In this document: positions 5,163 through 50,600 of the stretch, one piece after another
Layout: each line of letters begins with the position of its first letter
Position numbering within the stretch: the stretch's first letter is position 1
NCBI GenBank assembly: GCA_045650745.1
Contig: JAZRRN010000048.1
Span: 5,896-69,895, forward strand
Direction: 5' to 3'
From: Candidatus Caccovivens sp.
GTDB lineage: Bacteria; Bacillota; Clostridia; Christensenellales; UBA1242
DNA: 64,000 bases
The notes under the pieces: generated by a model
The model's input: only the letters and a program-made list of their open reading frames with translations
Told to the model about the DNA's origin: nothing
The model's database searches: none
Program-made: the position numbers and the translations under genes

Positions 5163-5223
5163 TTTTGTCTCCTTTTTCCTTCTTGATTTAGTATGCCAAA
5201 CAAAATCAATAATACTCATTTTG

Positions 5224-16433: not shown

Positions 16434-16633
16434 TCTTTTAAGTTAAATATGGTAAATATTCTTCAACATTGCGCCAACTAACTAGTAAATTTTAACAAAT
16501 TCTAGATAGAAAGTAAATAGATTTTCAAAAAAAGTTTCCAAAATAGGAAAATTCTGGCTTATATCACCATGTTAGCACAAATCAATATTTTTCTGCAAAT
16601 ATTTTTGGCACATTTTTCAAAAATTTCACCAAA

Positions 16634-16665
16634 CAAAAAACGAGCACACCTTTCAGTGAGCCCGT
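16634..16665 (-). terminator. Terminator of the 3440-aa gene
   Basis: Minus strand: ACGGGCTCAC-TGAAAG-GTGTGCTCGT (imperfect 10-bp stem) followed by T6. Confidence 0.6.
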
Positions 16666-16675
16666 TTTGTTTTGA

Positions 16676-19600
16676 TTATTCTGCCTCAAAAACCTTTGCA
16701 AGTCCATACATTGATGCATACAAATTGTATGAGTTTGAAGATTCATCAGCGTTTGGTCTGATGTAAACAATGTTGCAATAATAGTTTGAATCTGTGGCAA
16801 GAGTAATTCTTCTTGTGATGATTGTCTTGATTTCGCCACCTTCCAATTCTACTTCACCACCTGTAAGATTTCCAGTTGATGAAACTTTCAATGTGCTTGA
16901 CGATTCTTCCTTGCCTTCGTTTGAAACCAAGTCATAAACATGCACTGTAGCTGAAATTGTAGAATCAGTCGATTCAACCGATTGTTCCATAACACCAACA
17001 TTCAAACCAACAACTGCACCTACGCCAGAGTCAATATCTGATGCATAGACATAAATAGATTGATTTGCAACAACATTGAAGTAGTTTCTGTTTCCGGTTG
17101 TTGCAGAAAGTGCAAACGAACCATTGTCAACAATGCAACCAACCAAACCACCAATGCCGGTTTCGTCCATTCTGTGTCCATAAAGGTTGAGTTTGCCCAT
17201 TTCAAGCACAATGTCCTTAAACACAACACGACCAGTTTTGTTGTTGATTGTGCCAACAATTCCACCTACATATTGGAATCCGGTAAATTCGCCAGAAACT
17301 TTGATGTTTGAAATTTCAGCAACTTCGTTGATTACGCCTGCAAAACCACCAAGGTTTTGAATTCCGTTTTGAGTACTTTGTGTGCTGACACTGATTGATT
17401 TTGAAATTGTCACATCGCTGACACTTCCACCACTGATCAATCCAGCAAAACCACCAATACCTTCAGCAGTAAACACTTGCTTGATGTTTGTAAATGCTTG
17501 ATCACTTCCGTGAACATTAACATTCTTCACAGTTCCTCTAGATTCGCCGGTAACAAAACCACCATATCCATAGGCACTGATGATCATGCTGTCATCAACC
17601 AAAACATCAATCTTTTCTGCTGTTGCACCACTGTCGATATATCCAAAGACAAGCCCAGCAGTATCTGCATAAACAGAAACCACTTCGTCAACTTTGATGT
17701 TGTAGATATAACCTCTTCCACTCAAAACGCCAACCAAAGATCCTGCGTAAGAGTATCTGCCCATATCTTCGCCATCAACAAATGCCGATCCACCAATGTT
17801 CCAGTTTCTTACAATAGCTCCCACTTGAGAGTAAAGATTTTGAATTTTATAATTTCCAACAGCAACACCGATGGCACCACCAACAATGTTGTTTCCTTCA
17901 ACATAAACTGCATCTGCACTGTCTCTGACAATGTCAACATTGACGATTGTTCCACCATCAAGTCTTCCTGTAAGAGCACCAACTGAATTTGCGTTTGCAA
18001 ATGAAACGCCCAATGGTTCGTAAGTAAAGTTCATCAAAGTTCCAACAGCGTCTGTCAAACCTGATCTTCCCACTTCTGCAAAAAGACCAGCATAGTTTAC
18101 AGATTCGCTGTCAACGAGTGTTACACCTGAAATCTTCATAAAGTTTCCTTCAAGGTAACCAACAAACTTTGTCTTAAACAATTGACTGTTTTCTGTGTAA
18201 CCTTCGTAAGTCACATCTGAAATCAAACGATAATAAGAATAGTTGAATCCAGCATTTGTGTTTTCTCTTGAGATATAAGTTTCCATTGTCTTGTAGTCAT
18301 TGATAAGGATTGGGTTGTAAACCGAACCCAAAGGTTGACTTGAAAGAGCATAAATGTAAACATATCTTGCAGAAGTTGCACCCTTGTCATCAACAATTGT
18401 TTCGATGCGATCCAATTGTCTTCTTGAATATGCAATGATGTTTGCAGAAACAAGTTCCAATCTGCCAGCATTGAATGTCGCAGAATTGAAGTTTGAATAA
18501 TCGGTGGTGTTGTTATTAAAGAACCAAACCGAATTGATATCTCTTCCTTCAACATAAACATAGTTTTTAAAGTTTTCCATGTTGCCAAATTCTGTACAAG
18601 ACAAAGGTTTGAGTCCTTCTGAATCTTCAAGGGCAATCTCCCCAATATTTTCGTTGAGCCCACTGTCTTGCAAATAATAACAGTCTTCAAGACTTCCTTG
18701 AATAGATCCCTTATAGTTTGTCCTTGCAAAACCATAGTTTGAAGTTTGGTCATTTTCCATAATGCAAGTTGAGAAGCATCTTGCAATATTTCCACCGTTT
18801 TCAAATACAAAGCCTGATGCATAAGTTCCGCTTTGCTTCAATTGAATGTTTGAATAACAATCTGCAACAGTGCCTTCGTTTGAATAAATAAATCCAGCAA
18901 GGCTGTTGCTTGATCTGATTTCGTTTTCAGATCGTTTGTTATAATACATACTGTCTGCACTTGGAGTTCCACTTACATAAGAAGTGAAAATTCTTCCTGA
19001 ATTTGTGTTTGTCACAACAAATCCTGCGGTGTATTCGGCAGTAGTTGTTGTTTCATTTCGCAAGCTTGCGCCCATATAATAAGAACTTGCAATTGTTCCG
19101 CTGTTTTCACCAACAAAACCAGCCAAGTTTACATTACTAAAGATGCTTACCTTGCTTCTTGAGTTTGTGATATAGCCATTGTTTTTGCCGACTAAACCAG
19201 CAACATAAGCAGAAGAGGCTTTTTCCGAACATACAACAGAAAGTGTTGAGTTGTTTGAAGCCTCAACCGAGCAGTTTGTGATGATGCCTTCGTTGCTTGC
19301 AGTCAACAACCCTACATCAAATGATCCTGCACCAGTTTTGAAAATTGTGTCACTTGTCATTCTGACTGTAACATTTTGCAAAATTGCATCACTTTCATTT
19401 GTTGCAAACACACCAATTTGTGTTGCTGAGCCAAAATCATAAGTGCCTGCAAATTGCAAAGAATAGCCATTTCCGTCAAGTCCAGCAATTCTTGCTGTAA
19501 GTGGAACAAATTGTTCTACATCATTGATTGCCGCATATTCCATGCTTGGCAAAACAATGTCGTTGAGCAAGATATACCACTCGCCATCTGCCATCTTTTC

Positions 19601-22600
19601 GATCAAATCGTTGTAGTCCTCAATTGGGATAGGACTGTCTTGTGTGCTTTGATCATGCACATCAAATTCGAAAACAGTATAAACTCTTTCAGCACCATCT
19701 CTTGTTGCGCTGTAAGTATAAACACCGTTTCTCATTGTGTAATAAGAATCCATTGAGAATGAATAAACATCACTTGTTTTTGAATTGTAAACTCTAAGTG
19801 GAGTTACAGTGTAACCAGCAATTTGATAATAGTCAGTTCTAATTTGAGAATCGCCTGACAAAACTGTGTCCTCGCCATTCATATAAACTGTCCATGTGAC
19901 ATTGCTTGACATTTCACCAACAAATGTGTCAACTTCGTTGCTTACGATTGGGTTTGATTTGTCATATTCAAGGAAGCTTCTGATTGAAAGTTGAAGTTCG
20001 TAAGGATTTCCGATTGCTGTTGAGATAACGCCATCAACCATGCCTCTTACAAGGTCGAGATAAACGCCTTCTTCATACACATAGTTAAACACATATTCCA
20101 TTACATACAAACGGATAGAATCTTCGCTTCTTACGGCTTCGCCATTGACAATCTTTTCGCCGATTGTCTTGATCATAATTTCTTTTCCAATTCCACCATC
20201 ATAAACAATGTTTTCTGATGTAACCGTCAAAACATATTTTGCACCAACTTTGTTGATTGAAACAATTTGACTTGCATCAGAAGGTTGTCCATTTGCGTCC
20301 AAGATTTGGATTTCAATTTGATCTGCTGTGTAACCATAATAGTTTAATGTCAAATCATAAGAAAGACCACGGGCAACATAATAATATCCACCAGCATCTT
20401 GCTTGTCGTCAAAAACAAGTTCGGCATAACTGCCAAGTTTTGTTGTCAAGTAAACTGGATAAGATTCAGCAAATTCGCCTCTATTTCCATAAGTTACAGA
20501 AACATTAAATCCAACAGCCACACCATCAGAAACATTCTTTGATGGCATGTTGTACATAATATAAACTTTTCCAACATAAGAAACTGAAACTGTGTTCAAG
20601 AACGAAATCATTTCGTCGTATGTGAAGCTAAATTTGCCATCTTTTTGACTTCCAAATGTGTCAACTCTGACAAATTCCAATTCGCTGCCAGCTTCTTGCT
20701 TTTCATAAACAAATGTAAACAATGCTTTTGCTGCATCTTTGCTTGAATTTTGTGACATATTTTCGATTGTAAATGTGTTGAACACTGCTTCAACAGGGTC
20801 AACAAACACTTCAATCAAACCGTTTTGTCCAGGAACAATGATGTCATCAACCACTGAAACATCATTGATGTTTGAATAGTTGTCTGCTGTGATATAGTTT
20901 ACGCCTGCTTCATCAAGGTTGAGTTCGACTGTTGCAAACACACCATCATAAAGCTCAGTCGCATAGAAGAAGATCACATATTTTCCAAAAATTCCTGTTT
21001 CAAATCTGTTTACAAACGCATCACTTGCAGAATTTACTCTAAGAGAATAGTCAAAAACATTAACCATTCCTGCTTTTCTTGCAAGAGTAACATTAAACAA
21101 ATCATCTGTAAGTGAAAGTGTGTTTACAAATGCTTGCCACTCTGCCTCAGAGTCACAATCATTGATGTTGTCAGGCATTCTTGATTGAACAAGCCTGTCT
21201 TCATCACCTTCTCTATAGAAGATTTCGTAGAACAAATATTCTTCATCATTTGTTGAGTCAACTGTCACTGTGTCAGTGTAAGGTTCGTTTGTTTTGATTG
21301 AAATTTCAACACTGTCTGGTCTGATCGCAGATGCTGTATCTTTGTAAACAACAGACAAATCAATTTCAGAAGCAGACAATTCGTAAACAAACAAATATGA
21401 TTGCTCGCCAATTGTCACAGAAACTTGCAACATAGGCACAAGTGTGTAAGAGTCAACAGCACCTTCAATCGCTTCTGCACTCTTATAGAAGATGATTGTT
21501 TGCTTGTTTACTTGCACTGATGAGAATGTTTTTACATTTTCGTCACAATCTGCAAACAATTGAGAGTTTCTTGTCAAATTGTATGCAACATTTTTGTATG
21601 ACAAAACCCCTTCTTTTGTGATCGAATATTTGTCATTTTCGCCAAGATATGTCGCAGTGTCATCAAGTGTGTATGTTGGCACCAAATAAATGTTTGTGTT
21701 TGAATTTCCATAAACTGAAACTTGACTTCCGTTTACAACATTCATTCCACTTGCGTTTCTGCTTGTGTAGAATACTGATCCTGCAACATCTTTGTCGAAG
21801 TAATTTGTAATATAAATATAAACTGTTTTAGATTCTACTCTATTCAAAATGCTTGTCAATGTCAAAGTTGCCAAACCAACGCCATGCGCGGTAATGTTTC
21901 CATGAATGTCAACTGACAACAATCCTGCTTTTTCTGCAGTCGAAATGTTTACATCTTGACTTGTGATTTTGATTGGATAGAAATCAGAGTTTGGAGAAAG
22001 TGTGTTGAGTGCCAAAACTTCATCTTGCACCACTCCGGTTGTCGAACCACTTACACGGTTGTCAACACCAAAATAATACATAAAGTAAACACTTACACCT
22101 TCAACCGAGCCGTTTGTCATAAGGTAAGGATTTCCAGCATCTTCACCAAGACCAACTTCTTTTGTTTCGAAGCACACTGTTTTGAAGATTTCATAAACAT
22201 TGCCCACTTTCTTGAGAGAAACAAGATCTCCATAATAGTGAGTTGTTGAAGTGTCTGAAGTAGAACCCAACGCTGTTGATGGGTTTACAATTCTCTTCAA
22301 ATACGAAACTGCTCTAAATGCCGAACCATAGCTTCTTCTTGTTTCGCTAGCATTTCCAACCATTCCATAAACGCCTGCAGCATCAAATGCAACTTGCTTA
22401 AATTTGATGAGCATTGCAGAATAAAGAGTGTTTCTGCCATCGTCAACTGCTTCAATATAGTTTCCAGAACCAAAGTTTACACGATATCTGTCATCAACTG
22501 ATGCGTCAACAAAGTCATAACCACAAATTGTTCCAACATAGTCATATCCTCTGACAAAGATACGAGAGTTGTTTGTCCAAATGTCAATTCTGTCAACATT

Positions 22601-25600
22601 TGCAGTGTGAGCATAACCTACCACACCACCAACATAATCTGTGTATCCTTTTTCAGCTGCTGTTTTTGAAACAATGTCTTGTGTTGAAATTTCGCCACCA
22701 ACAAGCATGCTCTTGATTGCGATGCCACTTTCAACTGTTTCTTCTGCCATAATTGGCATTGTTGTTTCAGCCAAATCTTGGTTGTAAATATAAGCAACCA
22801 TAGATTTTTGGTGAGTTCTTCTGCTGTAGTTGTTGTATGCCACAGCACCAGCAACACCACCCAAATAGATGTTTGAATAATCATTTTGCACTGTTTCGCC
22901 AGACACTTTGATAAGAGTGTATGCCGAATAAGCAGAATAACCATAAAGTTTGAGTTCTGTTGATGTTGTGCGTTCTACAAGGCCTGCAGTTGCACCAACA
23001 ACACCACCAGCAAACAAGTTTGTCGAATCTGCTTCAATTGTCAAATAATCGTTGAAATATGCAAGATTTTTTGCATTTTGTCCAGCAAATTTTGCACCAC
23101 TTTCATACAAAGTGAAATCTTGCAAAATTTGTCCGTAGTTTGCTGCAGCAACCGAACCAAAATAAACATTTGTGCTTGCTACTGTTTCAATGCTTGATGC
23201 AGCAACAATTCTTGTGCCAAGGTTTCTCACAATACCTTTGTTGATTGCAACAGCAAGGCCAACATAGGCACTTCTTTGAAGATCGAGATCAACCTTTCCT
23301 GTGATCAAAATGTTTTCAATCATTGGAGTTTCAATTTCGATAATGTTTCCTGTCACACCATCATAAACAATTTCGTTGAGTTGTGCAAACAAGCCAGCAT
23401 ATTGAACGCCATCGACTGTTTCCACAAAGTTTGCATTGTTTACAAAAAGGTTTGTGATTGAAGCTTGAGCAGTTGTGCCTGTAAGCGAACCACTAAAACC
23501 AACCAACACTTTGTTGCCTTCTCTTTCAAGGATACCAATTGGTGTTGCACCTGAAATTGCAGACATATCAATCACTGTGTTGAGCTCGTAATGACTCTTC
23601 AATGTTGTTTCATTTGCATTGATTGCCAAAATATCTTCTGGTTTTTCAAGCAAATAAGGATTGTTTCTAGATCCGTTTCTATAATGAACATCAATGCAAA
23701 GAGGTTTCTTTGTCAAAGAAGTATAGTTGCTGCCCCATTCTGCTGGATAAACATAAATTCTTCCTGTCAAAGACTCTTCAATGTTTACAATGTTTGCAAT
23801 GTTGTTTCTATAGAAGTTTTCACAAGAAATAAAAATTGTATAAGTGCCCTTTGATTGTTCTGAATAATCCACAACAATCTCAACCATATCGGTATAAGGG
23901 TTTCCGTTTGTCAATTCAAAGTCAACTCTCAATCTCTTGTTTGTCGCATCTGTTGGATATGTGTAAACACCCAAAGTATAAGACAATTTGTCGTTTGTAA
24001 AGTTGAGTTCGTCTATTGCTGTTGAAAGTGATATGCTTTCAATTGATTTGTATGGAGATGAAACAATCTTTGCATCATATCTCTTTGTCGAATTTCTTTG
24101 TCTGAGATTTGTGCTCAACACAAATGAATACGAACGCATATCTGTTGCAAAATATGTCAAAGTGTCAAGGTCAAAATAACCAAAACCACCAATGCTTCCA
24201 CCGAGATAATAGATGTTTGAGAATTCTACGGTATACAACGCCATAAGCGAGCCACCCTCATCTCTTTCTTCATAGATAAAATCTTCAGAACTAAACATCA
24301 TTCCGGTTTCAAATGTCACATAAACCATACGAGTTTCTTCGTGTGTTGTGCCATCTTGAATCCATTGTTTTGTGATTTCAACAGCTGTTGCTGTTTTGTC
24401 AAATGGTTGACCTTTGCTGTTTTGCACATAATAGTATACAAATTTTTGATCATATTCTTCTTCAACCAATTCAGAATAATAATCTGTGCTTACAGTTGTA
24501 TAGTTGTAGACAATGCTGCCATCTGGCAATTCAGAGTCAAAAGAGTTGTACATGTTTGGAATAGCTTTCTTGTCAAATTCGTATTTATAGAAGTTTGTTG
24601 ATTGTCGGTTGTTTGCCACAACATCAAACTTGACCGAACTGTCTTCTGTGCTTACTCCCGAACCATAATAAACAGTGTTGTTCAAGGCATAATCTTCGCC
24701 ATTCTTCAAATAATATTCGTCAACAAGTGAATAAGAACTAATCCTTGCATAATATGTAAGTTCTGTGTTCACCACCTTAAAATCATCTACTGTATTTCCC
24801 ATCAAGGTAAATGTGACATCTGTCACACCATTTTTAACAGTTGCAATTCTGTAAAAATCGTTTACTTTTGCCACTGTTGCAATGTTTACATCACCAGGGA
24901 TATATTTTACGCCTTCACCTGCCAAGTTTGCTGCAATCTTGATAAAGGCATAATTGTTGAAAGTGATTTCATCTTTTGTAGATGGGTTCAACACTTCAAT
25001 GTTTAACACATTTTCATATTCTGCTTCATATTTTGAATAAGAATAGTTTGAAACTGCCTCATTTCCTTCACTTGCCAAAGCAAAGGTTGTTGTTTCTGCT
25101 TTCAAAGTTTTTACAACTTCAAAATTTACATATCTTGACAAACCGTTGTCAAGGAAGATTTTGTAAACACCTTTACCAACTTTCTTTGGCACAACCTTCA
25201 TGTTAAGGAAAAATCCGTCAACACCTTCAACATAAGGATTTTCGTTGTCTGCAATGATTGTCACGACATCTTCGCCACCATCATGCTCGTATGAAATCCC
25301 TTGAAATCTGTGTTCTGCATAAAGTTGTTGATCAAACGCAACTTCTTCTGCGTCATAATCCACTTTCAAATATCTGTTTTCATCACCTGTGTAAGCATGA
25401 GCAATATTCAAATAGCTTGCACCTTCAACAACCGAGAAGTCAATTGCCAATGTCAATTCTTCTGCGTCTTGAATGATGTCGCTCACAAGGTGAATAACAA
25501 GTGTTGTTTTGTCTGTTTTTGGCGCTTTGTCAACACCTCTAACAAAAAATGGTCTATTCAAATCAGTGTAGAGCTTTGCGTTGCCGTTTACAACATTCAC

Positions 25601-26998
25601 TCTGTCACTTGTGATAATTTCCAAATAAGTTTCATCAAATTCAAACCAAATTCCATCGTAGTTTGCTGGAGAGTTGAGTCCTGACAAAACATTTACCCAA
25701 AGTTCGTTCCAGCCATATTCATCAAGTTTGTAACTGTTGTAAACCACCATTGGTTCTGGTTCGGAAGTTCCGTTTACTGTCACTTCAATTGGTGCAATTT
25801 TTACATCAAGTCTAAACCTTCTCAATGCGTTGACACTGTCATCTTGCACACCCTTTGCAACATTATAATAGATTTCAACATCAAAATAGTCTGTTGTTTG
25901 TGTTTGTGAGTTTTGTGAAACCAACCAATAGAAAGTTTCAAATTCGCCTTCATCAGCAACTTCCAAAGGTTCGATATTCACAAAGCCATTTTCAAGCAAA
26001 GGTTTGTAAGTGATGATTGATTCTTCTTCCAATTTGATGTTTGTTTCGATTTTCAAAACAAATTGTGTCATGTTTATATTGTTTGGCACGATTGAAATTG
26101 TGTTGTCTGTAAGTGGTTGATAGTCCACATCGCCAGTCACCGTGTCAACATATCCACCAGACACATCAATTTTGAGACTTGGCAACACATAAACATCTGA
26201 CAAACAATAAACAATTTTGTCATATGCAATGTTCCCTACCGAACATTCATAAACAGTAAGCATATTAAACTTGCTCACAAGGTCAACTTCTGCAAATGCA
26301 GATCCGTTTACACTTGCAAAAAGTTTGTTTTCGCCCGTATCTTCATCAGCAACAAGTTTCATTTTGTCAAAAGCAACAATGCTTCCATCAATGATAGATC
26401 CTGTTCCGTTTTTGAAGATCGCTTTGTCTGATTCAAGGTCAATTGAATCAAGATAGAATGTTGCATCCAAATCTGCGTTTGGTGTGAAATAATAATAGTT
26501 CAATTTGTCATAAGTCACAAAGTCACTATCAAATTCGACCAAAGCAGAAGTTGGTTGAAACATTGTGTCATTTGAAACATAGTTGATGTCATCTTTTGCG
26601 TCCATAGATTTTGCATATTGTTCTACAAAAATTGACACCGTGCAAGTCTTCATTCCATCAAAAGTTGAAACTGTAAGAGTTCCTTCGCCACCATTTGTTG
26701 CTGTGACAGTCACCCTTATTCTCGACTTGTCCATTTGTTGTTGTGTGTAAGTAAAGATTGAAGAATCTCTGTTTGAATCTTCTTCAATATGCACATAGTT
26801 GTCAAAACCATTTTGATATCCTTCGATTGTGAAGATAATATCCTCAGTTTGTCCAACTTCCAAGTTTACTGATTGACGATTGGCTGTGATGTGAATCTTG
26901 CTGTAGTCTACTCCACAACCAACAAAAAAGAAACCTGCAAACAAAAATGCAAATACACTACACAATGATATAATTATATTTCTTAAAGTTTTTGTCAT
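16676..26998 (-). CDS. Giant surface lipoprotein (3440 aa) built from beta-sandwich/Ig-like arrays alternating with GLUG-type beta-helix repeat modules
   Basis: Uninterrupted 10.3-kb ORF. N-terminus MTKTLRNIIISLCSVFAFLFAGFFFVGCG gives a signal peptide plus lipobox. There are many repeats of about 20-25 aa of the form (A/G)G(F/L/I)(V/A)G.N.G.I..(S/C)(Y/F), for example YVAGLVGKNNGYITNS, LAGFVGENSGTIASSY, AGFVVTNTNSGRIFTSY, AGFIYSNEGTVADCY, SGFVFENGGNIARCF. Modules open with NP(I/Y)xI...DGNGYSL-type entries. Confidence 0.9.
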   Translation of the reverse strand: MTKTLRNIIISLCSVFAFLFAGFFFVGCGVDYSKIHITANRQSVNLEVGQTEDIIFTIEGYQNGFDNYVHIEEDSNRDSSIFTYTQQQMDKSRIRVTVTATNGGEGTLTVSTFDGMKTCTVSIFVEQYAKSMDAKDDINYVSNDTMFQPTSALVEFDSDFVTYDKLNYYYFTPNADLDATFYLDSIDLESDKAIFKNGTGSIIDGSIVAFDKMKLVADEDTGENKLFASVNGSAFAEVDLVSKFNMLTVYECSVGNIAYDKIVYCLSDVYVLPSLKIDVSGGYVDTVTGDVDYQPLTDNTISIVPNNINMTQFVLKIETNIKLEEESIITYKPLLENGFVNIEPLEVADEGEFETFYWLVSQNSQTQTTDYFDVEIYYNVAKGVQDDSVNALRRFRLDVKIAPIEVTVNGTSEPEPMVVYNSYKLDEYGWNELWVNVLSGLNSPANYDGIWFEFDETYLEIITSDRVNVVNGNAKLYTDLNRPFFVRGVDKAPKTDKTTLVIHLVSDIIQDAEELTLAIDFSVVEGASYLNIAHAYTGDENRYLKVDYDAEEVAFDQQLYAEHRFQGISYEHDGGEDVVTIIADNENPYVEGVDGFFLNMKVVPKKVGKGVYKIFLDNGLSRYVNFEVVKTLKAETTTFALASEGNEAVSNYSYSKYEAEYENVLNIEVLNPSTKDEITFNNYAFIKIAANLAGEGVKYIPGDVNIATVAKVNDFYRIATVKNGVTDVTFTLMGNTVDDFKVVNTELTYYARISSYSLVDEYYLKNGEDYALNNTVYYGSGVSTEDSSVKFDVVANNRQSTNFYKYEFDKKAIPNMYNSFDSELPDGSIVYNYTTVSTDYYSELVEEEYDQKFVYYYVQNSKGQPFDKTATAVEITKQWIQDGTTHEETRMVYVTFETGMMFSSEDFIYEERDEGGSLMALYTVEFSNIYYLGGSIGGFGYFDLDTLTYFATDMRSYSFVLSTNLRQRNSTKRYDAKIVSSPYKSIESISLSTAIDELNFTNDKLSYTLGVYTYPTDATNKRLRVDFELTNGNPYTDMVEIVVDYSEQSKGTYTIFISCENFYRNNIANIVNIEESLTGRIYVYPAEWGSNYTSLTKKPLCIDVHYRNGSRNNPYLLEKPEDILAINANETTLKSHYELNTVIDMSAISGATPIGILEREGNKVLVGFSGSLTGTTAQASITNLFVNNANFVETVDGVQYAGLFAQLNEIVYDGVTGNIIEIETPMIENILITGKVDLDLQRSAYVGLAVAINKGIVRNLGTRIVAASSIETVASTNVYFGSVAAANYGQILQDFTLYESGAKFAGQNAKNLAYFNDYLTIEADSTNLFAGGVVGATAGLVERTTSTELKLYGYSAYSAYTLIKVSGETVQNDYSNIYLGGVAGAVAYNNYSRRTHQKSMVAYIYNQDLAETTMPIMAEETVESGIAIKSMLVGGEISTQDIVSKTAAEKGYTDYVGGVVGYAHTANVDRIDIWTNNSRIFVRGYDYVGTICGYDFVDASVDDRYRVNFGSGNYIEAVDDGRNTLYSAMLIKFKQVAFDAAGVYGMVGNASETRRSYGSAFRAVSYLKRIVNPSTALGSTSDTSTTHYYGDLVSLKKVGNVYEIFKTVCFETKEVGLGEDAGNPYLMTNGSVEGVSVYFMYYFGVDNRVSGSTTGVVQDEVLALNTLSPNSDFYPIKITSQDVNISTAEKAGLLSVDIHGNITAHGVGLATLTLTSILNRVESKTVYIYITNYFDKDVAGSVFYTSRNASGMNVVNGSQVSVYGNSNTNIYLVPTYTLDDTATYLGENDKYSITKEGVLSYKNVAYNLTRNSQLFADCDENVKTFSSVQVNKQTIIFYKSAEAIEGAVDSYTLVPMLQVSVTIGEQSYLFVYELSASEIDLSVVYKDTASAIRPDSVEISIKTNEPYTDTVTVDSTNDEEYLFYEIFYREGDEDRLVQSRMPDNINDCDSEAEWQAFVNTLSLTDDLFNVTLARKAGMVNVFDYSLRVNSASDAFVNRFETGIFGKYVIFFYATELYDGVFATVELNLDEAGVNYITADNYSNINDVSVVDDIIVPGQNGLIEVFVDPVEAVFNTFTIENMSQNSSKDAAKALFTFVYEKQEAGSELEFVRVDTFGSQKDGKFSFTYDEMISFLNTVSVSYVGKVYIMYNMPSKNVSDGVAVGFNVSVTYGNRGEFAESYPVYLTTKLGSYAELVFDDKQDAGGYYYVARGLSYDLTLNYYGYTADQIEIQILDANGQPSDASQIVSINKVGAKYVLTVTSENIVYDGGIGKEIMIKTIGEKIVNGEAVRSEDSIRLYVMEYVFNYVYEEGVYLDLVRGMVDGVISTAIGNPYELQLSIRSFLEYDKSNPIVSNEVDTFVGEMSSNVTWTVYMNGEDTVLSGDSQIRTDYYQIAGYTVTPLRVYNSKTSDVYSFSMDSYYTMRNGVYTYSATRDGAERVYTVFEFDVHDQSTQDSPIPIEDYNDLIEKMADGEWYILLNDIVLPSMEYAAINDVEQFVPLTARIAGLDGNGYSLQFAGTYDFGSATQIGVFATNESDAILQNVTVRMTSDTIFKTGAGSFDVGLLTASNEGIITNCSVEASNNSTLSVVCSEKASSAYVAGLVGKNNGYITNSRSKVSIFSNVNLAGFVGENSGTIASSYYMGASLRNETTTTAEYTAGFVVTNTNSGRIFTSYVSGTPSADSMYYNKRSENEIRSSNSLAGFIYSNEGTVADCYSNIQLKQSGTYASGFVFENGGNIARCFSTCIMENDQTSNYGFARTNYKGSIQGSLEDCYYLQDSGLNENIGEIALEDSEGLKPLSCTEFGNMENFKNYVYVEGRDINSVWFFNNNTTDYSNFNSATFNAGRLELVSANIIAYSRRQLDRIETIVDDKGATSARYVYIYALSSQPLGSVYNPILINDYKTMETYISRENTNAGFNYSYYRLISDVTYEGYTENSQLFKTKFVGYLEGNFMKISGVTLVDSESVNYAGLFAEVGRSGLTDAVGTLMNFTYEPLGVSFANANSVGALTGRLDGGTIVNVDIVRDSADAVYVEGNNIVGGAIGVAVGNYKIQNLYSQVGAIVRNWNIGGSAFVDGEDMGRYSYAGSLVGVLSGRGYIYNIKVDEVVSVYADTAGLVFGYIDSGATAEKIDVLVDDSMIISAYGYGGFVTGESRGTVKNVNVHGSDQAFTNIKQVFTAEGIGGFAGLISGGSVSDVTISKSISVSTQSTQNGIQNLGGFAGVINEVAEISNIKVSGEFTGFQYVGGIVGTINNKTGRVVFKDIVLEMGKLNLYGHRMDETGIGGLVGCIVDNGSFALSATTGNRNYFNVVANQSIYVYASDIDSGVGAVVGLNVGVMEQSVESTDSTISATVHVYDLVSNEGKEESSSTLKVSSTGNLTGGEVELEGGEIKTIITRRITLATDSNYYCNIVYIRPNADESSNSYNLYASMYGLAKVFEAE
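18771..19200 (-). repeat. Example block of GLUG-like repeats (coding) inside the 3440-aa gene
   Basis: Translates to AYVAGLVGKNNGYITNSRSKVSIFSNVNLAGFVGENSGTIASSYY...AGFVVTNTNSGRIFTSYVSG...LAGFIYSNEGTVADCYSNI...ASGFVFENGGNIARCFSTC. Confidence 0.7.
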
Positions 26999-27039
26999 AG
27001 ATTTCCTTTTATCAGTTTGTATTTAGTTTATAAATCAAA

Positions 27040-29739
27040 TTATCTACCTTCAAAGAGTTTTCTTACATAAGGTTGAGCAATAACTTGAACTGTCGTTCTG
27101 GCTGTTGCGCTTGTGATCAAGAAGCATTGTCCAACGCCGGCAGTAACGATTGTGTTTTGTTCTTCTTCGTTGATACCACCAGATTTTTCATACAACGACA
27201 CAAGGTCGGATATATCTGCCGGAGCAAGTGAGAAGATCATAGAATATTGACAAGCGTTGATAACGGCTGTTGATTGTCTTCTGATTTCTTCAGTACCAAC
27301 GAAGTCGGCAATGTTTTGTGTAATGATAAGCAACATACCACCGTATTTTCTAATACGCTTAGCCATCTGTGCCATAAAGTCCAAAGCTACTGGGTATTTA
27401 GGGTTAATAAAGATGTGAGCTTCGTCAACGGCAACGATAATTTTTCTGTTTTTGCGATATTTTTTGTTGAAGTCTTTGTTGTTGATAACTTCGTTGTTGA
27501 GGTATCTAAATACCAAAAGCATCTGAGCGTTTGTGATTTGTCCGTTGTTTCCAGCAACCAATGATTGGAAGTTGAAAGTAACGAAGTTTTCGTTTGTTTC
27601 AATAGAAGTTGGGCCATTCCACAACGCACTGTTTCTTCCACCTGTCGCAAACTTCTTGATGTAAGTTTCAACAGTCATCAAACTTCTCAAAGAGAATTCG
27701 TCTTTCGCTTCTTTAATTCTCTTTACAATCAAAGCATACAAGTCGTCAAAGGTTGGATAATCAGTTGGCTTCAATCTAGCCAAGTTTGAAGTTTCACCAA
27801 TGTCTTTTTCTTTGTACATATCAATAATCAAAGAGTTGAGTGTTTCGAAAGCGTCTGTGTTGATACCTTCCAAAATAACTCTAAAGAATTGTTCCAAAAA
27901 CTGCAAGTGTTGTGCAAACGAGTCGTCGACTTTCTTGTCAAGTTGTTTCTTCTTTTGGATAGGTCTTCCAAAATCGTCAAATTCTTCTTCCTCTTCTTTT
28001 TCTTCGTCTTCAGACGCTTCCAAAGATGAAATAACGTGGAATGGATTCAAAATTCCGTGAAGTGATGATCCAACGTCGATAAACTTTCCACCAAGACTCA
28101 TTGTCAAATCTTTATATTCGTTTTCAGGGTCGAGAATAAAGATCTTACAGTTGTCGGCTGACAAGTTTGTCAACAAAGTTTTTGTAGCATAAGATTTTCC
28201 GGAACCAGATTTTCCAATAACCATCATGTTTGAGTTAACTCTGCTTCTATCTCTCTTGAAGAAGTCAACAAACACTGGATATTCGTTGTCTCCCAAATAA
28301 ATTCCGTTTGGATCTTGCAACGCATTTGAAATAAATGGGAATGTCGCAGCAAGAGTTGTTGTTGGGATACCTCTGGCATTTTTTACCATTGCATCTCTTC
28401 TTGAAACGCCGGCAGAAACAAATCCATCAATTTGTCTTGCAAACAATTCAGAATATTTGAAGCCAGATTGTTTGAGCATCGCTCTAACATCTTTCTTTGC
28501 AGCATCTTCTGCAATGACATAAGTGTTTACGTTGTAAAGTTGTTCGTTGCTGTTTTTCAAACTTTGAAGCAAATCTTTCAATGTTGCCAAGTGAGTTTGA
28601 AGTTCGATTTGAGTAGAACTCTTTCCTGCTTTTTGCAACTTTGTTTCCATTTCCATGATACCACGGTCGATTTGCTTTTCAGATTCAAGTCTTCCAATCG
28701 GAGTAAACTTCATTACAACTCTAGTTCTGTCCAAAAGAAAAACTGGTGATCCCCAAGCATTTCCTACTTGCAAAGGATAGTCTGTCAAACTGAAACAACG
28801 ATAAGGTTGGTCATCAATAAAATATCTTGCGATGTTGAATTTGATTTTTTCTGGAGTCGCCCACTTCATATATTCTGACATTGGCATAACTTCCAAATCT
28901 CTTTCGTCAAATTCTTTTGTAAGGTTTGCCTTCAAGAAGACATACAAGTCATTTCCTTCAAGTTTGTGTGATGTGATTGGGTTGAGTGCTGCGCCCATTG
29001 CTTGGATCATACCTGAAGTGGTTGTATCCAAAATTTCCATGTCCTTGTCATAAACGACCATATAGAAGTGATCTTTGTAGACTTTTGATTGTCTGTTCAT
29101 AAATTCGTAAAGCGTAACTCTTTCTTCAAAGATCGGAGCACGGGCATCAATTTCGTCTTGTGAAATTTGTCCATCATATTGCATGTCATAAAGCACATCA
29201 TACTTTTGGTTTTCGCCATGAATGTATCTATCCAAAATCATTGGCTTGCTGATCTTGACAAGCGAACAAGTTTGATCTGGTGTCAATCTTCTGAATGCGT
29301 TGGCAAAAGCATTGATAACATTGTCTTGATAATATTCTGTCAACAAAGTGAAAAACATTGGTTCGATTTCAATAACTTGTGCATAGTATGGACCAAAGTT
29401 GATAAACTTGTCTTGATACACACCTTCGTATGCAATCATTTCGCCAACTGTTGATTTCTTCTTGGCACCATCTCCCTTGCTAAACTTTTTCTTTTGCACC
29501 GAATATTTCAGCAAGTGCACCAATGTGATATAGAAACGATCTTCATCGGCTGGCTTCAAATACATTGAGATTGCAACAATCAACCATGCAACACCAAGCC
29601 ATACGTGAAATGAGAAGTTTGCCAAAAACAAAACTACTGCCACGGCAATAAAAATAAGAGCCAAGATCAAGTCAAGCCCTGTGAAACCTCTCATAAATTC
29701 TGATTTAACTTTTGCTTTTTTTGGAATAACTCTAACCAT
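27040..29739 (-). CDS. VirB4/TraE/TrsE-family conjugation-type ATPase with an N-terminal VirB3-like two-TM segment
   Basis: 899 aa. Two TM helices (LILALIFIAVAVVLFLANF and VWLGVAWLIVAISMYL). Walker A MMVIGKSGSGKSY (about 28194-28217), DPENEY, Walker B KIIVAVDEAHIF (about 27412-27442), and ..ELFARQIDGFVSAG.. typical of Gram-positive VirB4 homologs. The stop is 41 nt upstream of the 3440-aa gene start, with no terminator between them. Confidence 0.8.
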   Translation of the reverse strand: MVRVIPKKAKVKSEFMRGFTGLDLILALIFIAVAVVLFLANFSFHVWLGVAWLIVAISMYLKPADEDRFYITLVHLLKYSVQKKKFSKGDGAKKKSTVGEMIAYEGVYQDKFINFGPYYAQVIEIEPMFFTLLTEYYQDNVINAFANAFRRLTPDQTCSLVKISKPMILDRYIHGENQKYDVLYDMQYDGQISQDEIDARAPIFEERVTLYEFMNRQSKVYKDHFYMVVYDKDMEILDTTTSGMIQAMGAALNPITSHKLEGNDLYVFLKANLTKEFDERDLEVMPMSEYMKWATPEKIKFNIARYFIDDQPYRCFSLTDYPLQVGNAWGSPVFLLDRTRVVMKFTPIGRLESEKQIDRGIMEMETKLQKAGKSSTQIELQTHLATLKDLLQSLKNSNEQLYNVNTYVIAEDAAKKDVRAMLKQSGFKYSELFARQIDGFVSAGVSRRDAMVKNARGIPTTTLAATFPFISNALQDPNGIYLGDNEYPVFVDFFKRDRSRVNSNMMVIGKSGSGKSYATKTLLTNLSADNCKIFILDPENEYKDLTMSLGGKFIDVGSSLHGILNPFHVISSLEASEDEEKEEEEEFDDFGRPIQKKKQLDKKVDDSFAQHLQFLEQFFRVILEGINTDAFETLNSLIIDMYKEKDIGETSNLARLKPTDYPTFDDLYALIVKRIKEAKDEFSLRSLMTVETYIKKFATGGRNSALWNGPTSIETNENFVTFNFQSLVAGNNGQITNAQMLLVFRYLNNEVINNKDFNKKYRKNRKIIVAVDEAHIFINPKYPVALDFMAQMAKRIRKYGGMLLIITQNIADFVGTEEIRRQSTAVINACQYSMIFSLAPADISDLVSLYEKSGGINEEEQNTIVTAGVGQCFLITSATARTTVQVIAQPYVRKLFEGR

Positions 29740-29920: not shown

Positions 29921-29948
29921 AAAAAAGGCAAAAAATAATATTTTTGCC
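29921..29948 (-). terminator. Terminator of the 29979..30650 gene; it isolates the ATPase/giant-gene operon
   Basis: Minus strand: GGCAAAAA-TATTA-TTTTTGCC followed by T6. Confidence 0.65.
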
Positions 29949-44629: not shown

Positions 44630-47600
44630 TTATGAATGGTATTCACTTGGGACTTCAAAGCTTCGTGTCATATTGATATAGTTACCGGTTGACCAAACAG
44701 TTTTTGCTCCACCACCTTCCCAGTAGAACCAAGCAGGTTGAAGAACAAATCCGGCAGTTGCCTTACCATCAATATACAAATAAACTTTTGTTTCGTCGCC
44801 AACTGAGCCAGAAGCATCTACTTCAGCTTCAGCATTGTCCCACCACCAGTCAACACCGTTTTGAACGAAGGTAAATTGTTCCCATACCCACCAAACAAAT
44901 TTTGTCTTGTTGTGTGGGAACAAGTGTCCAGTTGCATCTCCGACTTTTGAAGCTGTGTTTGCATGGTGAAGTCCATGCTTAACGGCTGCACCAAATGTTG
45001 TGCCGTATCCATTGCCTTCTGCCCATGTGCCACTTGATGGAATCTTAGAGCTGTCATTGTTTGAAGCAGCATAATAATAGTTTGATGCGCCTGGATCGAT
45101 ATATCCAAATCCACCAGAACCTGACAAACCTGCATATACCTTTGTGCGTGGAGTTGGCGCTTCAAGTGCTGTGGCAGAACCTGTGCTTCCGTTTGAGCCA
45201 TTTGTTCCACCTGCACCAGCAGAACCACCATCTCTGATAGCAATGCTTGATGTGTTGTCAATATAACCATTGACGCCACTTCCGCCATAACCAGCAAATC
45301 CACCTTTTCCAGCTCTTGCAATTGATGTTGATTGAGATGCACCAACATCAACCGAACCTCCATTGCCTCCATTTTTTCCTGTTTGACCATTTCTTTCAGA
45401 ACTGTCTACAGAAATCTTTCCTTCAATACCATTTTTTGCACTGCCAGCATCACCTGCGATGAGCAAGTTTTTTGCAGTGTATGTTTCTTCTGCAGCGAGC
45501 GCAACATTGTCAATAAGTTTTGTTGTTACGCTGTCGCCAGCATCAATTGTTGATTTAAATTCGGCAGACAAACCAGAAACTGCAACATTTGATTTAAGTC
45601 CTTTGTATGTCAACTTATCGCTTCCACTTACTGCACCAACAGTGATGCCAATGTCGTGTTTAGCGTTTCTGATATTTCCATACAACGAAACATTATCCAA
45701 AGTTGTCACTGCCGAACCTTGTCCACTAAGAAGCAAATAGAATTCTGGTCTACTGTTGTTGATTCTGCTTCTAAGTGAAGAAGATCCAACAACGATAAGA
45801 TTTTCGATGTTTCTATTGTTTGTGTCAAACAAACTGCTTTGTTCGCTGTTCGAACTAAACGCAATAATCTTGTTTTGTCCGATAATTTCAAAGATGTTTG
45901 TTGTCGAAATGTTTCCATCAATGTAAACATTGTTTGCCAACATCATCTTGTTGAAGACTTCTCTCTCTTCTCCAGAAGATGCACATGAAATTGTTGTATT
46001 TTTTGTGTATGTTGCATCGTAAGAATACAAATAAATTGTTTCGTTGATTCCAGAGTGATCAATTCTTCCTGTGCTTGACGATTTGATATCATTAGAAGTT
46101 GTGTTCTTGTGATATTTGAATGAATTTGGCACAAGGAGATGTCCTGAAGCCAAGTTGAGTTGGAATGTCTTTGAATGTCCAGCAACAAGGTTTTGAGTTG
46201 TTGATCTGCCTGCACTCTCTTCTCTAAGTTGATCAAACTTCATTTGCAAGAAACCATAATCTATCTTGTATCTAACCAAATTTAAAGAATCGGCAGACCA
46301 GCCACCTACGACAAGTTCGACAGGAATTTCTGCTTCTGTGCCTTGACTTTCCATGCTTTCAAACTTGCTTGCATTGAAACTTCCACTTGTTGCATTCTTA
46401 TAGTTTTCTTTCCAGTTGCAAGCTGCATATGCATTCACCCCATCAGTTGATACACTGTTTGCATGGACTGTATACATTGTCTTTCCATCTGTAATAAACA
46501 TTACGGATTTTTTGAGTTTTTTCTCATCATGCTCAACTTCTTCACCTTCGGATGAATTAACAGCGTTATACATGTAAGCAATTGAGATAACACCATTTTC
46601 GTAAATACGATATTCATATTCGTATTGAGTCATTGCGTAAGCAACATCTCTTGTGTATCTTGAAGTTGTTGCAACAAACTTTTTGCCATTGATCCAATCG
46701 TCGATGCTGTTTGATGGGGTTGAAATGTCAGACTCCTCAGTTCCATAAGCAACTGTAAATCCCTTAATGAGATCTTCTTCACCATCATCGTTCAATTCTA
46801 CCCAATTCATTCGAATTACTGTGTCAGTAGGACCCAATTTGTCAACGCCAGCCTTCCAAGATCCTCCCATGGTTGTCTTGATGTAAGTGATTTCAAACTT
46901 GTCGCCATCAGCAACATCATTGAATGTGTATTTGTGTGGCGTTGCATCTCTGTCATAGTATGTTTGAACATAATCTTTTGTTGCATTTGCAGAAGATTTT
47001 TGGGTAATTGTAAATCCAAGAGCTTCTTCGTTTGATGCTGTGATTTCTGTTCTTCTTGTCAAATCAAGAGTGATTTGAACAAGTTTTGTTGATGACAAAC
47101 CAAACTTAGCGCCACTGCTAATAACATTGACTTTTGCGCCATTTGACATTGCATCCAAACTTACGCTTGTGCTTGTGTATTGAACATTTGAGATCTTTCC
47201 AGCAGCTGCTGTAACAGTAACATATCCACCAGAAATGTTTGTTGTTGTTGCAACTGTTGCAAAGTCATCAATCTTAAATCCATCTTTTACTTGAGAATCT
47301 TTTACTTCCATATTAGATCCAAGAAGGTTTGTAGATTTGTTTTGATTCCAGTCAGCAACAGCATAAACAATGAATGCACCATTTATATCATTGATAAATT
47401 GTGTTTTCGCTGCCGAAGGTGCGCTGTTAATTTGAACACCAGTTGAATTGAAAGTAATAATTCCTGGAGTCACATATGTGCTAGTAATTGATGGGGAGCA
47501 AGTAACCAAACCACCTTGAATTGTAAAGTAGTGATTATCGTCCCAACCAAATGCAAAGTTTTCACTTGTGACACCAAATTCTGTTTTCAAATTTGCCCAA

Positions 47601-50600
47601 GAATTGATGATTGTTTCAATTTGCTTACCTGCACTTGAAACTCTTTCTTCTTTGTAGTTTGCAAAGTTTGCTACATACCCTGTAACACTGAAATCATCAT
47701 AAACTGTTTTTTCTGCATTTGCTCTGATTTCTGCACTTACATTGACTTGGGTTTTCCAATTTTCTTTGTAAGCAAGTTTAAGTTTCTTTCCATTGAATCT
47801 GTTTGCAATTTGCATATCATCGCCCAATTGAGAACTAAATTCAAGATAAGCAACATTAGAGTGTCCATTAAGAGTTCCGGTTGTATATTTCAAAGCATAA
47901 TTTGAAAGAGTTTGAACTGGAGTTTCAATTGTTGCAACAAGATCTGTAAACCACTTTGTGCCTGTGCCAATCGAGTCAGTTGACTCTCCATTTGTCACAT
48001 ATTTGTTGTAAGTATCAACAAAACTCTTTGTGATCATAACATTGTTGTCAAAGTTTTCTTTGAGCAAGATGTATGTCTTTCCACCTTGGTTGAACACGTT
48101 GTTTTCGCCAAGAGTAACAGTTCCACCTGTCTTTGAATAACTCAACGATGCTTCAATGTTGAATGATGTAACTTCTGACATAAAGCATACTGTATATTTT
48201 GCAGTAACATTTTTGCCAGATTTTGTAAATCCATTGAAGATGTTTCTTGAATACAATGCTGTGTTTGGATTTACACTTGTCACTCTGTTGAATGTGACTG
48301 CAAAGTTTGAATATTTGTCAACAGTCTCGTCCAAAGTGAATGTAACTTCTGCATCATATTTATATCCGTTGTACATTGCATCAACTTGATTTGCATTTGA
48401 AACGATGTTGATCTTTTCTCCTGCAACAGTGATTGTCTTTTCAGCCTCAAGAGACTTGATTGTTTTTTCAATTTCAGCAACTTTTTCAGTAATATAAGCA
48501 TCATTTTCTTGCTTATTTCCTGCATCATCAGTTCTGTTTGTAGGCTTTAAGAATGAAGTTGATGTGTAAGCTTGCACTTTATCGCTTCTCTTTGCGCACA
48601 AAGCAGCAAGTCCCATATATGGGTTTTCTGCATAAGTATAAGATCCATTTGCAGTTTCGTTGATTGTGTAAAGCACATCATCATAAGACATAAACTCAGC
48701 TTCTGCAAAGTATTTCACACTTCCCGAACCAGGCATTGTGTAATCTTCATTTGTGAAGTCAAAATCTGTTCCCTTTGTATATTCAACCCAAATTCTTTGT
48801 CCAAATGAGAATGTTTCTTTTCCAGTAAGAAATCCACCAGAATAAGAATATCTTCCTTTAAGATGCCATTCGTTTTCAGAATATGTTGGAGTTGCAGCAA
48901 CTTTGATGTCGTTTGAGTTTTGGTCGCCTTCGCTTGCATATTTTCTTTGAACAGCATCAATACCATAGATTCTTGTTGGGAATCCAAATGAGTCAGTTCC
49001 GTTGATACGATATGTTGTATCGCCAGTGCCCTTGTCTGTGCTTGCAAAGTTGTATTTATCAAATTTGCCCCAGAATCTCTTTGACGATGTTGCATCCAAC
49101 ATTTGTTGTCTGTCAAATGTCATTGTCGCAGAAACTTTGTATTCACCAATATTTCCATCATTCTTAACATTGTCTGTTGAACTTGATGTGTTTGTAATTA
49201 AATTAGCAGACTCTGATGTCCAACCAATACCATAAGCATAAACTTGTCTTTGTTTGCCAGGGTTGTAAGTCAATTCGTATGCGACCGAGTAATCTCCTGG
49301 TGTGTTTGTGTAAGCTTGATTTGGTGTGCCAGAAGTTGTGGCAGAGATTGAATAGTTGTCTGTGTTAGATCCATCAGGTCTCTTGCCCAATGCTTGAACA
49401 GCACCATCATTTGCACAACCAGTAACCTTGATGCCATCAGCATAACCAAAGATACCACCAGCAACATTCAAACCTTCTGACTTATAGTTTCCTGCGCCAA
49501 CAAATCCTGTGTTGTAACATTCTGTCAAACCATAAGTATTTGCACCAGAAGCAGATTTTCCAACAATACCACCAGCATAAGCAGCAGAAGTTGTATTTCT
49601 GTCTTCTGTATAGTTTGCAACAACCATACCTGTGTTGTATGTTTTGTTGATGTTTGAAACAGCAGCACGACTTCCTGCAATACCACCGGCATCAACTTCG
49701 ATGTTGTTGTGTGTCACAGCAACAACTGCGCCTGCGCTGCTTGAATTTGTAATTTCACCATTTTGCAATGCACCAACAAGACCGCCGACTGCACCACCTC
49801 TTGCAGTTACATTTACGGCAGATCTAACCTTGCTGATTTTTGCAGAGGCAGAGTCGATAACACCAACCACACCACCATAAGCAGCTGCAACATCGTCCTT
49901 TGTTGAAGTAAGACTTCCAACAACAGAAACATTTTCAAGCAAACCATTCAATTTGTTTGCAACAGTTCCTGCCATTGTGCCACTTGCAGTTACATTGATA
50001 TTTGCAATGTGAATATTTGACAATGTTCCATAGAACTCAGCAAAAATACCATTACTCATACCAGATGTCACATTTGTGTAATCCAATGTCTTGTTGTTTC
50101 CATCAAGAGCAAACGCAAATGAGCTTGAGCTCTTGTTGAGAACTGTAATGTTTGACTTTGAAGAAGCCAATTGACTTGCATCAATGTCATATCTAAGAAT
50201 AAATTTGTAGTTGTAAGTGTATGATGAGCCTGTTGTCACAGTTGCAATCATTTCGTCATATTTTGCCGCATTTGGAATTTGCATATACCATGTGCCAATA
50301 CCTGATCCTGTAGGCAAAGTGCAACTATTGTTGAAGAACCCTGTAACAATTTCATCAACACTCAAAACTTGATAACCAACACCTTCAACAGTAATGTCGT
50401 TTCCGTCATCATCTATTGTAGGTATTTCGATTGTTGTTTGTTTGTAAGTTGTGACATTTTTCAAGAAGTCAAATCCATGCACGCCATATCCATAGTTTAC
50501 AAATGGAGAGAAGTACCATGCATATTGAGTTTCTGGAGCAGTGTCACTTGGGTTGAGTGAGAACACTCTCTTTCCGTTTTCCAAATCTGCAAATGTCAAC

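Follow-up and report, generated by a model that had tools for sequence, protein, structure and literature searches.

We analysed a stretch of 64,000 nucleotides of contig JAZRRN010000048.1 from Candidatus Caccovivens sp. (referred to here as the window), in which one open reading frame (ORF) on the minus strand encodes a 3440-amino-acid (aa) protein that we call P0001. Our results favour, with a probability of roughly 0.55, the reading that P0001 is a fibre, anchored by a lipid, with which a partner-dependent bacterium makes contact or adheres. The gene is real, intact and strongly conserved. Its product is a well supported predicted lipoprotein that combines beta-sandwich domains with three beta-helix modules, and its gene lies next to rpoB.

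Caccovivens is placed by GTDB in the family UBA1242 of the order Christensenellales (PMC8035907). Members of this family have reduced genomes without amino acid, nucleotide or lipid pathways or standard transporters and probably live as obligate symbionts or parasites that depend on partner cells (PMC12306168); they are common in animal guts (PMC13155120). The host genome of P0001 measures 1.21 Mb at an estimated completeness of 100%, and 100 sampled genomes of the family range from 0.7 to 1.6 Mb. UBA1242 is uncultured and widespread in animal and human guts, and how its members meet their needs is the question behind our interest in P0001. As one of a conserved pair of genes by rpoBC, the P0001 gene is a prime candidate for encoding a structure that touches a partner or host.

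A single intact reading frame with a conserved lipobox

An earlier note on this DNA, made from its letters, had described a single 10.3-kb ORF with the N-terminal lipobox FVGCG; the ORF and this N-terminal sequence were both confirmed. Translation starts at an ATG that lies 5 nt after a GGA-type ribosome-binding site at 27004-27008, and the protein begins MTKTLRNIIISLCSVFAFLFAGFFFVGC. Its sole hydrophobic segment covers residues 4-33 (Kyte-Doolittle peak) and ends in F-V-G-C, with a basic n-region (K3, R6) ahead of the hydrophobic h-region of the signal peptide. Residues F24, F25, G27 and C28 were invariant across 22 orthologues, and orthologues from three other genera carried FAAC, FSAC and LFGC at the lipobox position. 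Compared with the lipobox pattern [LVI][ASTVI][GAS]-C, the motif F-V-G-C fits at positions -2, -1 and +1, whereas F at -3 falls outside the strict pattern and is admitted only by relaxed patterns in the style of PROSITE PS51257. The host genome encodes both Lgt (PF01790, E 6e-67) and LspA, or signal peptidase II (PF01252, E 6e-39). Taken together, the lipobox, its conservation and these two genes give good support to the prediction that P0001 is a lipoprotein.

The mature protein has a mass of 376 kDa and an acidic isoelectric point (pI) of 4.4. Its sequence contains no LPXTG motif, no C-terminal transmembrane (TM) or hydrophobic segment and no HExxH zinc motif, and neither SLH nor CWB2 domains were returned by the whole-protein Pfam scan. 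Anchoring through LPXTG or SLH was rejected, as neither signal is present. With no second anchor found in the sequence or by Pfam, the view that P0001 is held by its N-terminal lipid only has stood. No DNA tandem repeats were found inside the ORF.

Beta-sandwich arrays and three beta-helix modules

Segment-wise AlphaFold modelling, which the earlier note had proposed as a check, produced beta-sandwiches at residues 640-1110 and right-handed beta-helices at residues 1114-1510, 2453-2890 and 2891-3440 (Table 1). The AlphaFold2 model of residues 2446-3440, built from an alignment of them, reached a predicted local distance difference test (pLDDT) score of 84.6 and a predicted TM-score (pTM) of 0.81, with module 2 mostly above a pLDDT of 90. 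In this model, a short helical cap leads into a short-strand beta-helix, which a small linker joins to a second cap and a beta-helix with longer strands. A Foldseek search of residues 2446-3440 against the Protein Data Bank (PDB) gave 3n6z as its top match (BACOVA_03286, a GLUG domain protein annotated as a putative IgA1 protease; probability 1.0, target TM-score 0.53), followed by 7uvk and 7uvl (IgA1 protease of G. haemolysans) and 6xja and 6xjb (IgA1 protease of S. pneumoniae). This top group showed probabilities of 0.85-1.0 at 14-18% identity, and generic beta-helix proteins such as autotransporters, tailspikes and lyases ranked below it.

The AlphaFold2 model of residues 640-1760 had a pLDDT of 71.7 overall, with values of 70-91 in the beta-sandwich part and low confidence past residue 1520. 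Residues 640-1110 were modelled as about four beta-sandwich domains, after which a helix-capped beta-helix runs from residue 1114 to about 1510 and carries a disordered, variable insert at 1389-1424. Foldseek matched residues 640-1110 to the Ig-like arrays of the S-layer proteins Sap, SbsB and SbsC and to cadherins (probability 1.0, E 1e-9 to 1e-6). Of the roughly 1000 residues of Ig-like or beta-sandwich sequence that the earlier note had proposed, residues 640-1110 were therefore borne out by model and Foldseek, whereas residues 29-640, like residues 1650-2450, were assigned by extrapolation only. Column identity in the middle region was 0.58-0.72 among the 22 orthologues.

Windowed profile-profile comparison with hhalign matched module 1 to module 2 with 95.9% probability and to module 3 with 92.4%, which indicates that the three beta-helix modules are homologous. 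In the same comparison, no repeats appeared among the beta-sandwich regions at a probability of at least 80%, and only the three beta-helix modules matched one another. All the entry motifs quoted in the earlier note are present, at residues 1113 (NPYLL), 2456 (PIPIEDYNDLIEKM), 2506 (GLDGNGY), 2895 (NPILI) and 2947 (GYLEGNFM). By contrast, its estimate of 20-25 residues for the repeat length was too short: the G-(G/A)-hydrophobic-hydrophobic-G motifs are spaced 26-46 residues apart, corresponding to one beta-helix coil. The invariant residues of the beta-helices form a repeating structural ladder of N, G, I, S and Y.

Conservation was even along the chain among the 22 orthologues, save in the last 140 residues, which form the least conserved stretch of P0001 and, within module 3, its presumed distal tip. 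In one orthologue, P0012, an insertion of about 55 residues that resembles a coiled coil (LKDLENEVTELEEAIQELETEINASEIDDKTLLEKEQKLATKKKELAKMQDSIEK) interrupts the beta-helix of module 3 near the position of P0001 residue 3300. This insertion shows that the distal part of the protein tolerates large inserts.

Relationship to GLUG repeats

Whole-protein Pfam and NCBIfam scans of P0001 returned no significant match. The gathering cut-off of Pfam GLUG (PF07581) is 20.5 bits, and each module gave one sub-threshold GLUG match. These scored 17.1, 15.1 and 13.7 bits, the best of them in module 2 (window positions 19256-19327); the matches in module 1 and module 3 lie at 22592-22636 and 17288-17359. Formal Pfam GLUG membership was therefore not reached by any module of P0001. 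GLUG was nevertheless the only family that recurred among the orthologues (3 of 14, best E 0.0033), and Pfam scans of three distant orthologues yielded sub-threshold GLUG only, at 17.1 bits in one of them. A profile built from the 22 orthologues found only noise, and no relative, among PDB sequences.

Hidden Markov models (HMMs) of modules 2 and 3 matched two other ORFs of the host genome, a 6550-aa paralogue and a 1279-aa ORF, the second of which matches GLUG with a score above the cut-off. Because of the fold neighbours and of this link to a GLUG-positive ORF, we classify the modules, by modelled fold and transitive similarity, as divergent GLUG-type beta-helices. The resemblance to GLUG put forward in the earlier note thus held at the level of fold (3n6z, 7uvk, 6xja and 6xjb at the top) and fell short of the Pfam cut-off. 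The Pfam scan it had suggested assigned the repeats to no unrelated known family. No catalytic domain was recognised by the Pfam, NCBIfam or PDB sequence searches.

Conservation and distribution

Searching a collection of 5.8 billion proteins returned 23 proteins, 22 of which were full-length orthologues of 3430-3566 aa with 36-95% identity. A scan of species-representative genomes located 45 loci in gut metagenome-assembled genomes (MAGs), all with a collinear ORF, from hosts that include roe deer, water deer, rabbit, mouse and human. The orthologue-bearing MAGs go under the labels Clostridia, 'Christensenella', 'Catabacter' or 'Candidatus Caccovivens', and one collinear full-length orthologue, from roe deer, had 96% identity. 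An exhaustive profile search extended the family to 480 clusters (50% identity) at E<=1e-30; among the best 150 of these 480, nearly all were 3150-3900 aa long and matched the module pair at the C-terminus. The beta-helix module occurred in 78 of 101 sampled genomes.

Measured against L029, the closest relative available, which is 96% identical in the C-terminal third, the P0001 gene had a ratio of nonsynonymous to synonymous substitution rates (dN/dS) of 0.076 over its full length, and of 0.04-0.09 in each of ten windows along it. The corresponding values were 0.018 for the neighbouring ATPase gene and 0.016 for rpoB. Codon adaptation of the gene, a proxy for its expression, stood at the 81st percentile, whereas rpoB and rpoC reached the 95th to 97th and EF-Tu the top.

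The host genome is a MAG of 62 contigs, a setting in which so long an ORF could be an assembly chimera or a decaying pseudogene. We rejected both readings, whose probability we regard as negligible, because 45 species-level genomes, drawn from different hosts and built by different assemblers, each carry a collinear ORF of full length, the DNA contains no internal repeats and dN/dS is low.

A predicted operon with a VirB4-like ATPase upstream of rpoBC

The VirB4-like partner gene, the place next to rpoB and the paralogue all lay outside the scope of the earlier note. The C-terminal half of the 899-aa upstream protein matches the Thermoanaerobacter VirB4 ATPase domain (4ag5), and its N-terminus, with two TM helices, is VirB3-like. 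The gap between this gene and the ATG of the lipoprotein gene is 41 nt and holds no terminator. Judged from gene anatomy, the two genes form a predicted two-gene operon directly upstream of rpoB-rpoC, and rpoB has its own promoter-like site. No homopolymer G/C tract was found upstream of the operon, and a phase-variable promoter was rejected on that ground.

Comparison across relatives, another check that the earlier note had named, gave a uniform picture: 41 of the 45 loci extend far enough to show the gene order, and in every one of these, as well as in L009 and L011, it was ATPase gene, giant gene, rpoB. The ATPase gene lies apart from the lipoprotein orthologue in further genera of the family: 117 kb away in G237, and on another contig in G222, G280 and G066. 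In these four genomes, the orthologue sits behind a larger paralogue, at or near rpoB. The ATPase gene is likewise separate from the giant gene in G213 and G236, where one contig bears the giant gene and another rpoB. Because the ATPase gene lies elsewhere in the other genera checked, its pairing with the lipoprotein gene is a lineage-specific arrangement found in this genus, and a family-wide functional link between the two was rejected.

The orthologous ATPase gene of other families in the order has as its neighbours a gene for a VirB6-like membrane protein and genes for unrelated large charged proteins. At two such loci (L015:4702-9729 and L016:9482-14620), highly charged and apparently helical proteins of 1676-1713 aa are encoded downstream of the VirB4-like gene and show no similarity to the lipoprotein, and a VirB6-like polytopic protein is encoded upstream, overlapping the ATPase start. 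Two further VirB4-like orthologues from other families (G187:C8:51679-54312 and G007:C5:30950-33571) each contain one in-frame TAA, which could mark pseudogenes or sequencing errors.

A larger paralogue and other giant ORFs

The 6550-aa paralogue lies on the same strand as P0001 and shares with it the pair of modules 2 and 3; blastp aligned the two at 25% identity over 845 aa (E 1e-29). It was missed by the default filters of hmmsearch and recovered with --max. The paralogue is about twice as long as P0001, and it carries the module pair in mid-chain, whereas the pair is terminal in P0001; it also contains additional GLUG blocks, which score above the Pfam cut-off. Its own N-terminus lies beyond the window, and its orthologues in other genera have lipobox N-termini.

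In the other genera examined, the orthologues of the two genes are immediate neighbours. In three genera that we read (G237:C2:28310-59807, G222:C2:45426-75350 and G066:C5:57524-91953; loci L074-L079), a gene for a lipoprotein of 5400-6300 aa is followed by that for an orthologue of 3220-3520 aa and then by rpoB, so that the conserved unit in these genera is two giant lipoproteins and then rpoBC. In the window, about 17.6 kb of mostly housekeeping genes separate the two, among them those for RadC, an ABC transporter, CoiA, UvrB, UvrA, HflX, the PRC-barrel protein and the ATPase.

Seven ORFs of the host genome, of 11098, 6550, 6173, 4145, 3648, 3448 and 2749 aa, together occupy about 9% of its 1.21 Mb, and all have codon adaptation above the median (72nd to 90th percentile). 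At least some of the giant ORFs of this genome encode surface proteins.

Table 1. Positions of the P0001 gene, its parts and its neighbours in the window
Feature	Position	Strand	Basis and remarks
Complete ORF of the 3440-aa lipoprotein P0001	16676..26998	minus	Single ORF of 3440 codons; stop codon 16676-16678; orthologues
Signal peptide and lipobox F-V-G-C	26915..26998	minus	Residues 1-28; lipidation predicted at Cys28
First beta-sandwich array	23669..26914	minus	Residues 29-1110, about nine domains of about 115 aa; modelled for 640-1110, extrapolated for 29-640
Beta-helix module 1	22049..23668	minus	Residues 1111 to about 1650; capped by an NPYLL helix, coils with short strands; C-terminal end uncertain
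Middle region	19643..22048	minus	Residues about 1651-2452; presumed second beta-sandwich array, from composition and a low-confidence part of the model
Beta-helix module 2	18329..19642	minus	Residues 2453-2890; PIPIEDY cap, GLDGNGY first coil, N-x-G-x-I-x-x-S-Y coils, VWFF closing segment
Beta-helix module 3	16679..18328	minus	Residues 2891-3440; NPILI cap, longer strands
Intrinsic terminator	16625..16675	minus	Directly after the lipoprotein stop; hairpin and U-run, -18.5 kcal/mol, z -4.25
Upstream partner, 899-aa VirB4-like ATPase	27040..29739	minus	PDB 4ag5, E 1.9e-46; Pfam TraG P-loop and DUF87; Walker A GKSGSGKS
Terminator of the preceding PRC-barrel gene	29927..29948	minus	Start boundary of the two-gene unit
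Paralogous giant ORF, 6550 aa stop-to-stop	44630..64000 (runs off the window)	minus	Pair of modules 2 and 3 at its residues about 2315-3321

Proposed function and alternatives

We propose that P0001 would be exported by Sec, that Lgt would attach diacylglycerol to Cys28 and that LspA would then cleave the signal peptide, leaving the lipid alone to hold the protein to the membrane's outer face. From the membrane outward, the chain would present a stalk of about nine Ig-like domains, the first beta-helix, a presumed second beta-sandwich stalk and the tandem pair of GLUG-type beta-helices, the least conserved end of which would be the tip. If the chain is extended in this way, the fibre may pass through the wall and be exposed at the surface, where it would make physical contact with partner cells or gut surfaces through a conserved ligand that they carry. 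Three observations weigh against this proposal. The confident models cover about 60% of the chain, leaving about 40% (residues 29-640 and 1520-2445) outside; Phe is uncommon at lipobox position -3; and exposed adhesins do not usually show purifying selection so strong and uniform, which would also fit a structural envelope protein.

That last point leads to the reading that P0001 and the 6550-aa paralogue form a structural coat, an S-layer-like or glycocalyx-like layer that protects or shapes the cell. This is consistent with the acidic pI of P0001, with its uniform purifying selection, with S-layer Sap, SbsB and SbsC as the best fold matches of its beta-sandwiches and with an apparent family-wide core gene pair by rpoBC, given the module in 78 of 101 genomes and the pair upstream of rpoB in three of three other genera. 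The S-layer matches, however, reflect generic similarity among Ig arrays (TM-scores of about 0.1-0.18), and the known S-layer proteins that form lattices do not resemble a chain of some 3400 residues with three beta-helices. P0001 also has no SLH or CWB2 domain, and its codon adaptation stays below that of rpoB and rpoC and far below that of EF-Tu. We therefore consider a coat unlikely, if still worth entertaining. We regard as highly improbable the idea that the beta-helix modules are enzymes, either polysaccharide depolymerases or lyases resembling tailspikes or pectate lyases, or a component of a peptidase akin to IgA proteases. The top fold matches are indeed annotated as IgA1 proteases, and lower Foldseek matches include the HK620 tailspike, a Klebsiella phage depolymerase, fucoidan lyase and polygalacturonase; but these lower matches are poor (probability 0.1-0.7, TM-scores of about 0.25), and the invariant N, G, I, S and Y residues form a ladder with no acidic cluster. 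The beta-helix of the pneumococcal IgA1 protease acts as a gate and is not itself catalytic; catalysis by this enzyme depends on the HEMTH motif, which lies in other domains (PMC7695701). P0001 has neither an HExxH motif nor an M26 match in Pfam, and its identity as an IgA protease was rejected on these grounds.

A different alternative makes P0001 the adhesin, or contact element, of a machine derived from a type IV secretion system (T4SS), in which the VirB3/VirB4-like ATPase and dispersed VirB6-like and VirD4-like genes would move DNA or other cargo between cells. The 41-nt gap without a terminator, the terminators on both sides of the gene pair and the invariant gene order at 41 of 41 informative loci speak for this reading. 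So does the gene content of the host genome, in which VirB4, VirB6-like and VirD4 genes are each present once and no PF03432 relaxase was found; a chromosomal T4SS without a relaxase has a precedent in epibiotic Patescibacteria (bioRxiv 10.1101/2025.01.22.634366). The T4SS-like genes are scattered in the host genome, each beside a very large ORF, with the VirB6-like and VirD4 genes on another contig than P0001: the VirB6-like ORF of 823 aa (C49:176784-179252) lies just upstream of an 1829-aa ORF (C49:180694-186180), and the gene for the VirD4/TraG coupling protein (PF02534, E 8.5e-51; C49:36593-38059) stands tail-to-tail with a 4103-aa ORF (C49:39873-52181). Against a T4SS adhesin, the ATPase gene lies elsewhere in G237, G222, G280 and G066, so that the pairing is lineage-specific; the VirB4 orthologue sits amid unrelated genes in other families; and the Sec signal with its lipobox would allow export without need of a T4SS. 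We find this alternative rather improbable. In a more elaborate form that we hold equally doubtful, a domesticated, relaxase-less T4SS remnant (VirB3/4 with dispersed VirB6-like and VirD4) would be transcriptionally wired to the 376-kDa fibre as an apparatus for contact-dependent uptake from, or delivery to, a partner cell; if true, the Firmicutes would here have their own counterpart to the epibiosis that is proposed to depend on a T4SS in Saccharibacteria.

Comparison with known systems

We take PrgB of Enterococcus pCF10 and the CDS14 lipoprotein of Mycoplasma integrative and conjugative elements (ICEs) to be comparable T4SS-associated surface proteins. Like P0001 as predicted here, they are surface proteins co-transcribed with a VirB4-family ATPase, and CDS14 is likewise a lipoprotein. 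By contrast, P0001 has no ICE context and no PF03432 relaxase in its genome, it is not known to share sequence similarity with them, and its pairing with the ATPase gene is confined to one genus-level lineage.

With BACOVA_03286 (3n6z) and the N-terminal beta-helix of M26 IgA1 proteases, P0001 shares a right-handed beta-helix, a short helical cap and coils of the form G-G-hydrophobic-hydrophobic-G ... N-x-G-x-I. It differs from these helices in having three modules per chain, with much longer strands in module 3, and from the M26 enzymes in lacking the M26 middle and C-terminal protease domains and HExxH. Unlike the streptococcal IgA1 enzymes, it is predicted to be lipid-anchored and has no LPXTG and G5 context.

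The giant proteins described by West-Roberts et al. (bioRxiv 10.1101/2023.11.21.568195) are similar to P0001 in coming from very large ORFs of gut metagenomes, in combining many small beta domains with beta-helix elements and in their proposed role in cell binding. Those proteins have 10,000-30,000 aa, compared with 3440 aa for P0001, which contains none of the Listeria-Bacteroides, RCC1, dockerin or other Pfam repeats; the P0001 gene, moreover, is a single-copy core gene with a fixed position and under strong purifying selection. P0001 is thus of a known kind, built from familiar folds, since giant modular surface proteins with Ig-like and beta-helix domains have already been reported (bioRxiv 10.1101/2023.11.21.568195). 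What is particular to it is a large, unannotated family with a conserved architecture, the predicted lipid anchor and the fixed place by rpoBC in a lineage with reduced genomes. With its anchor, its module boundaries and well-modelled, expressible pieces now defined, P0001 offers reagents for antibodies, pull-downs and imaging.

Other genes of the window

Downstream of rpoC on the minus strand, the window contains a 1084-aa ORF with collagen triple-helix repeats (PF01391, E 8.5e-8; 1965-5219) and a 769-aa ORF with a GDSL lipase/acylhydrolase domain (5312-7621). Both probably encode further surface proteins.

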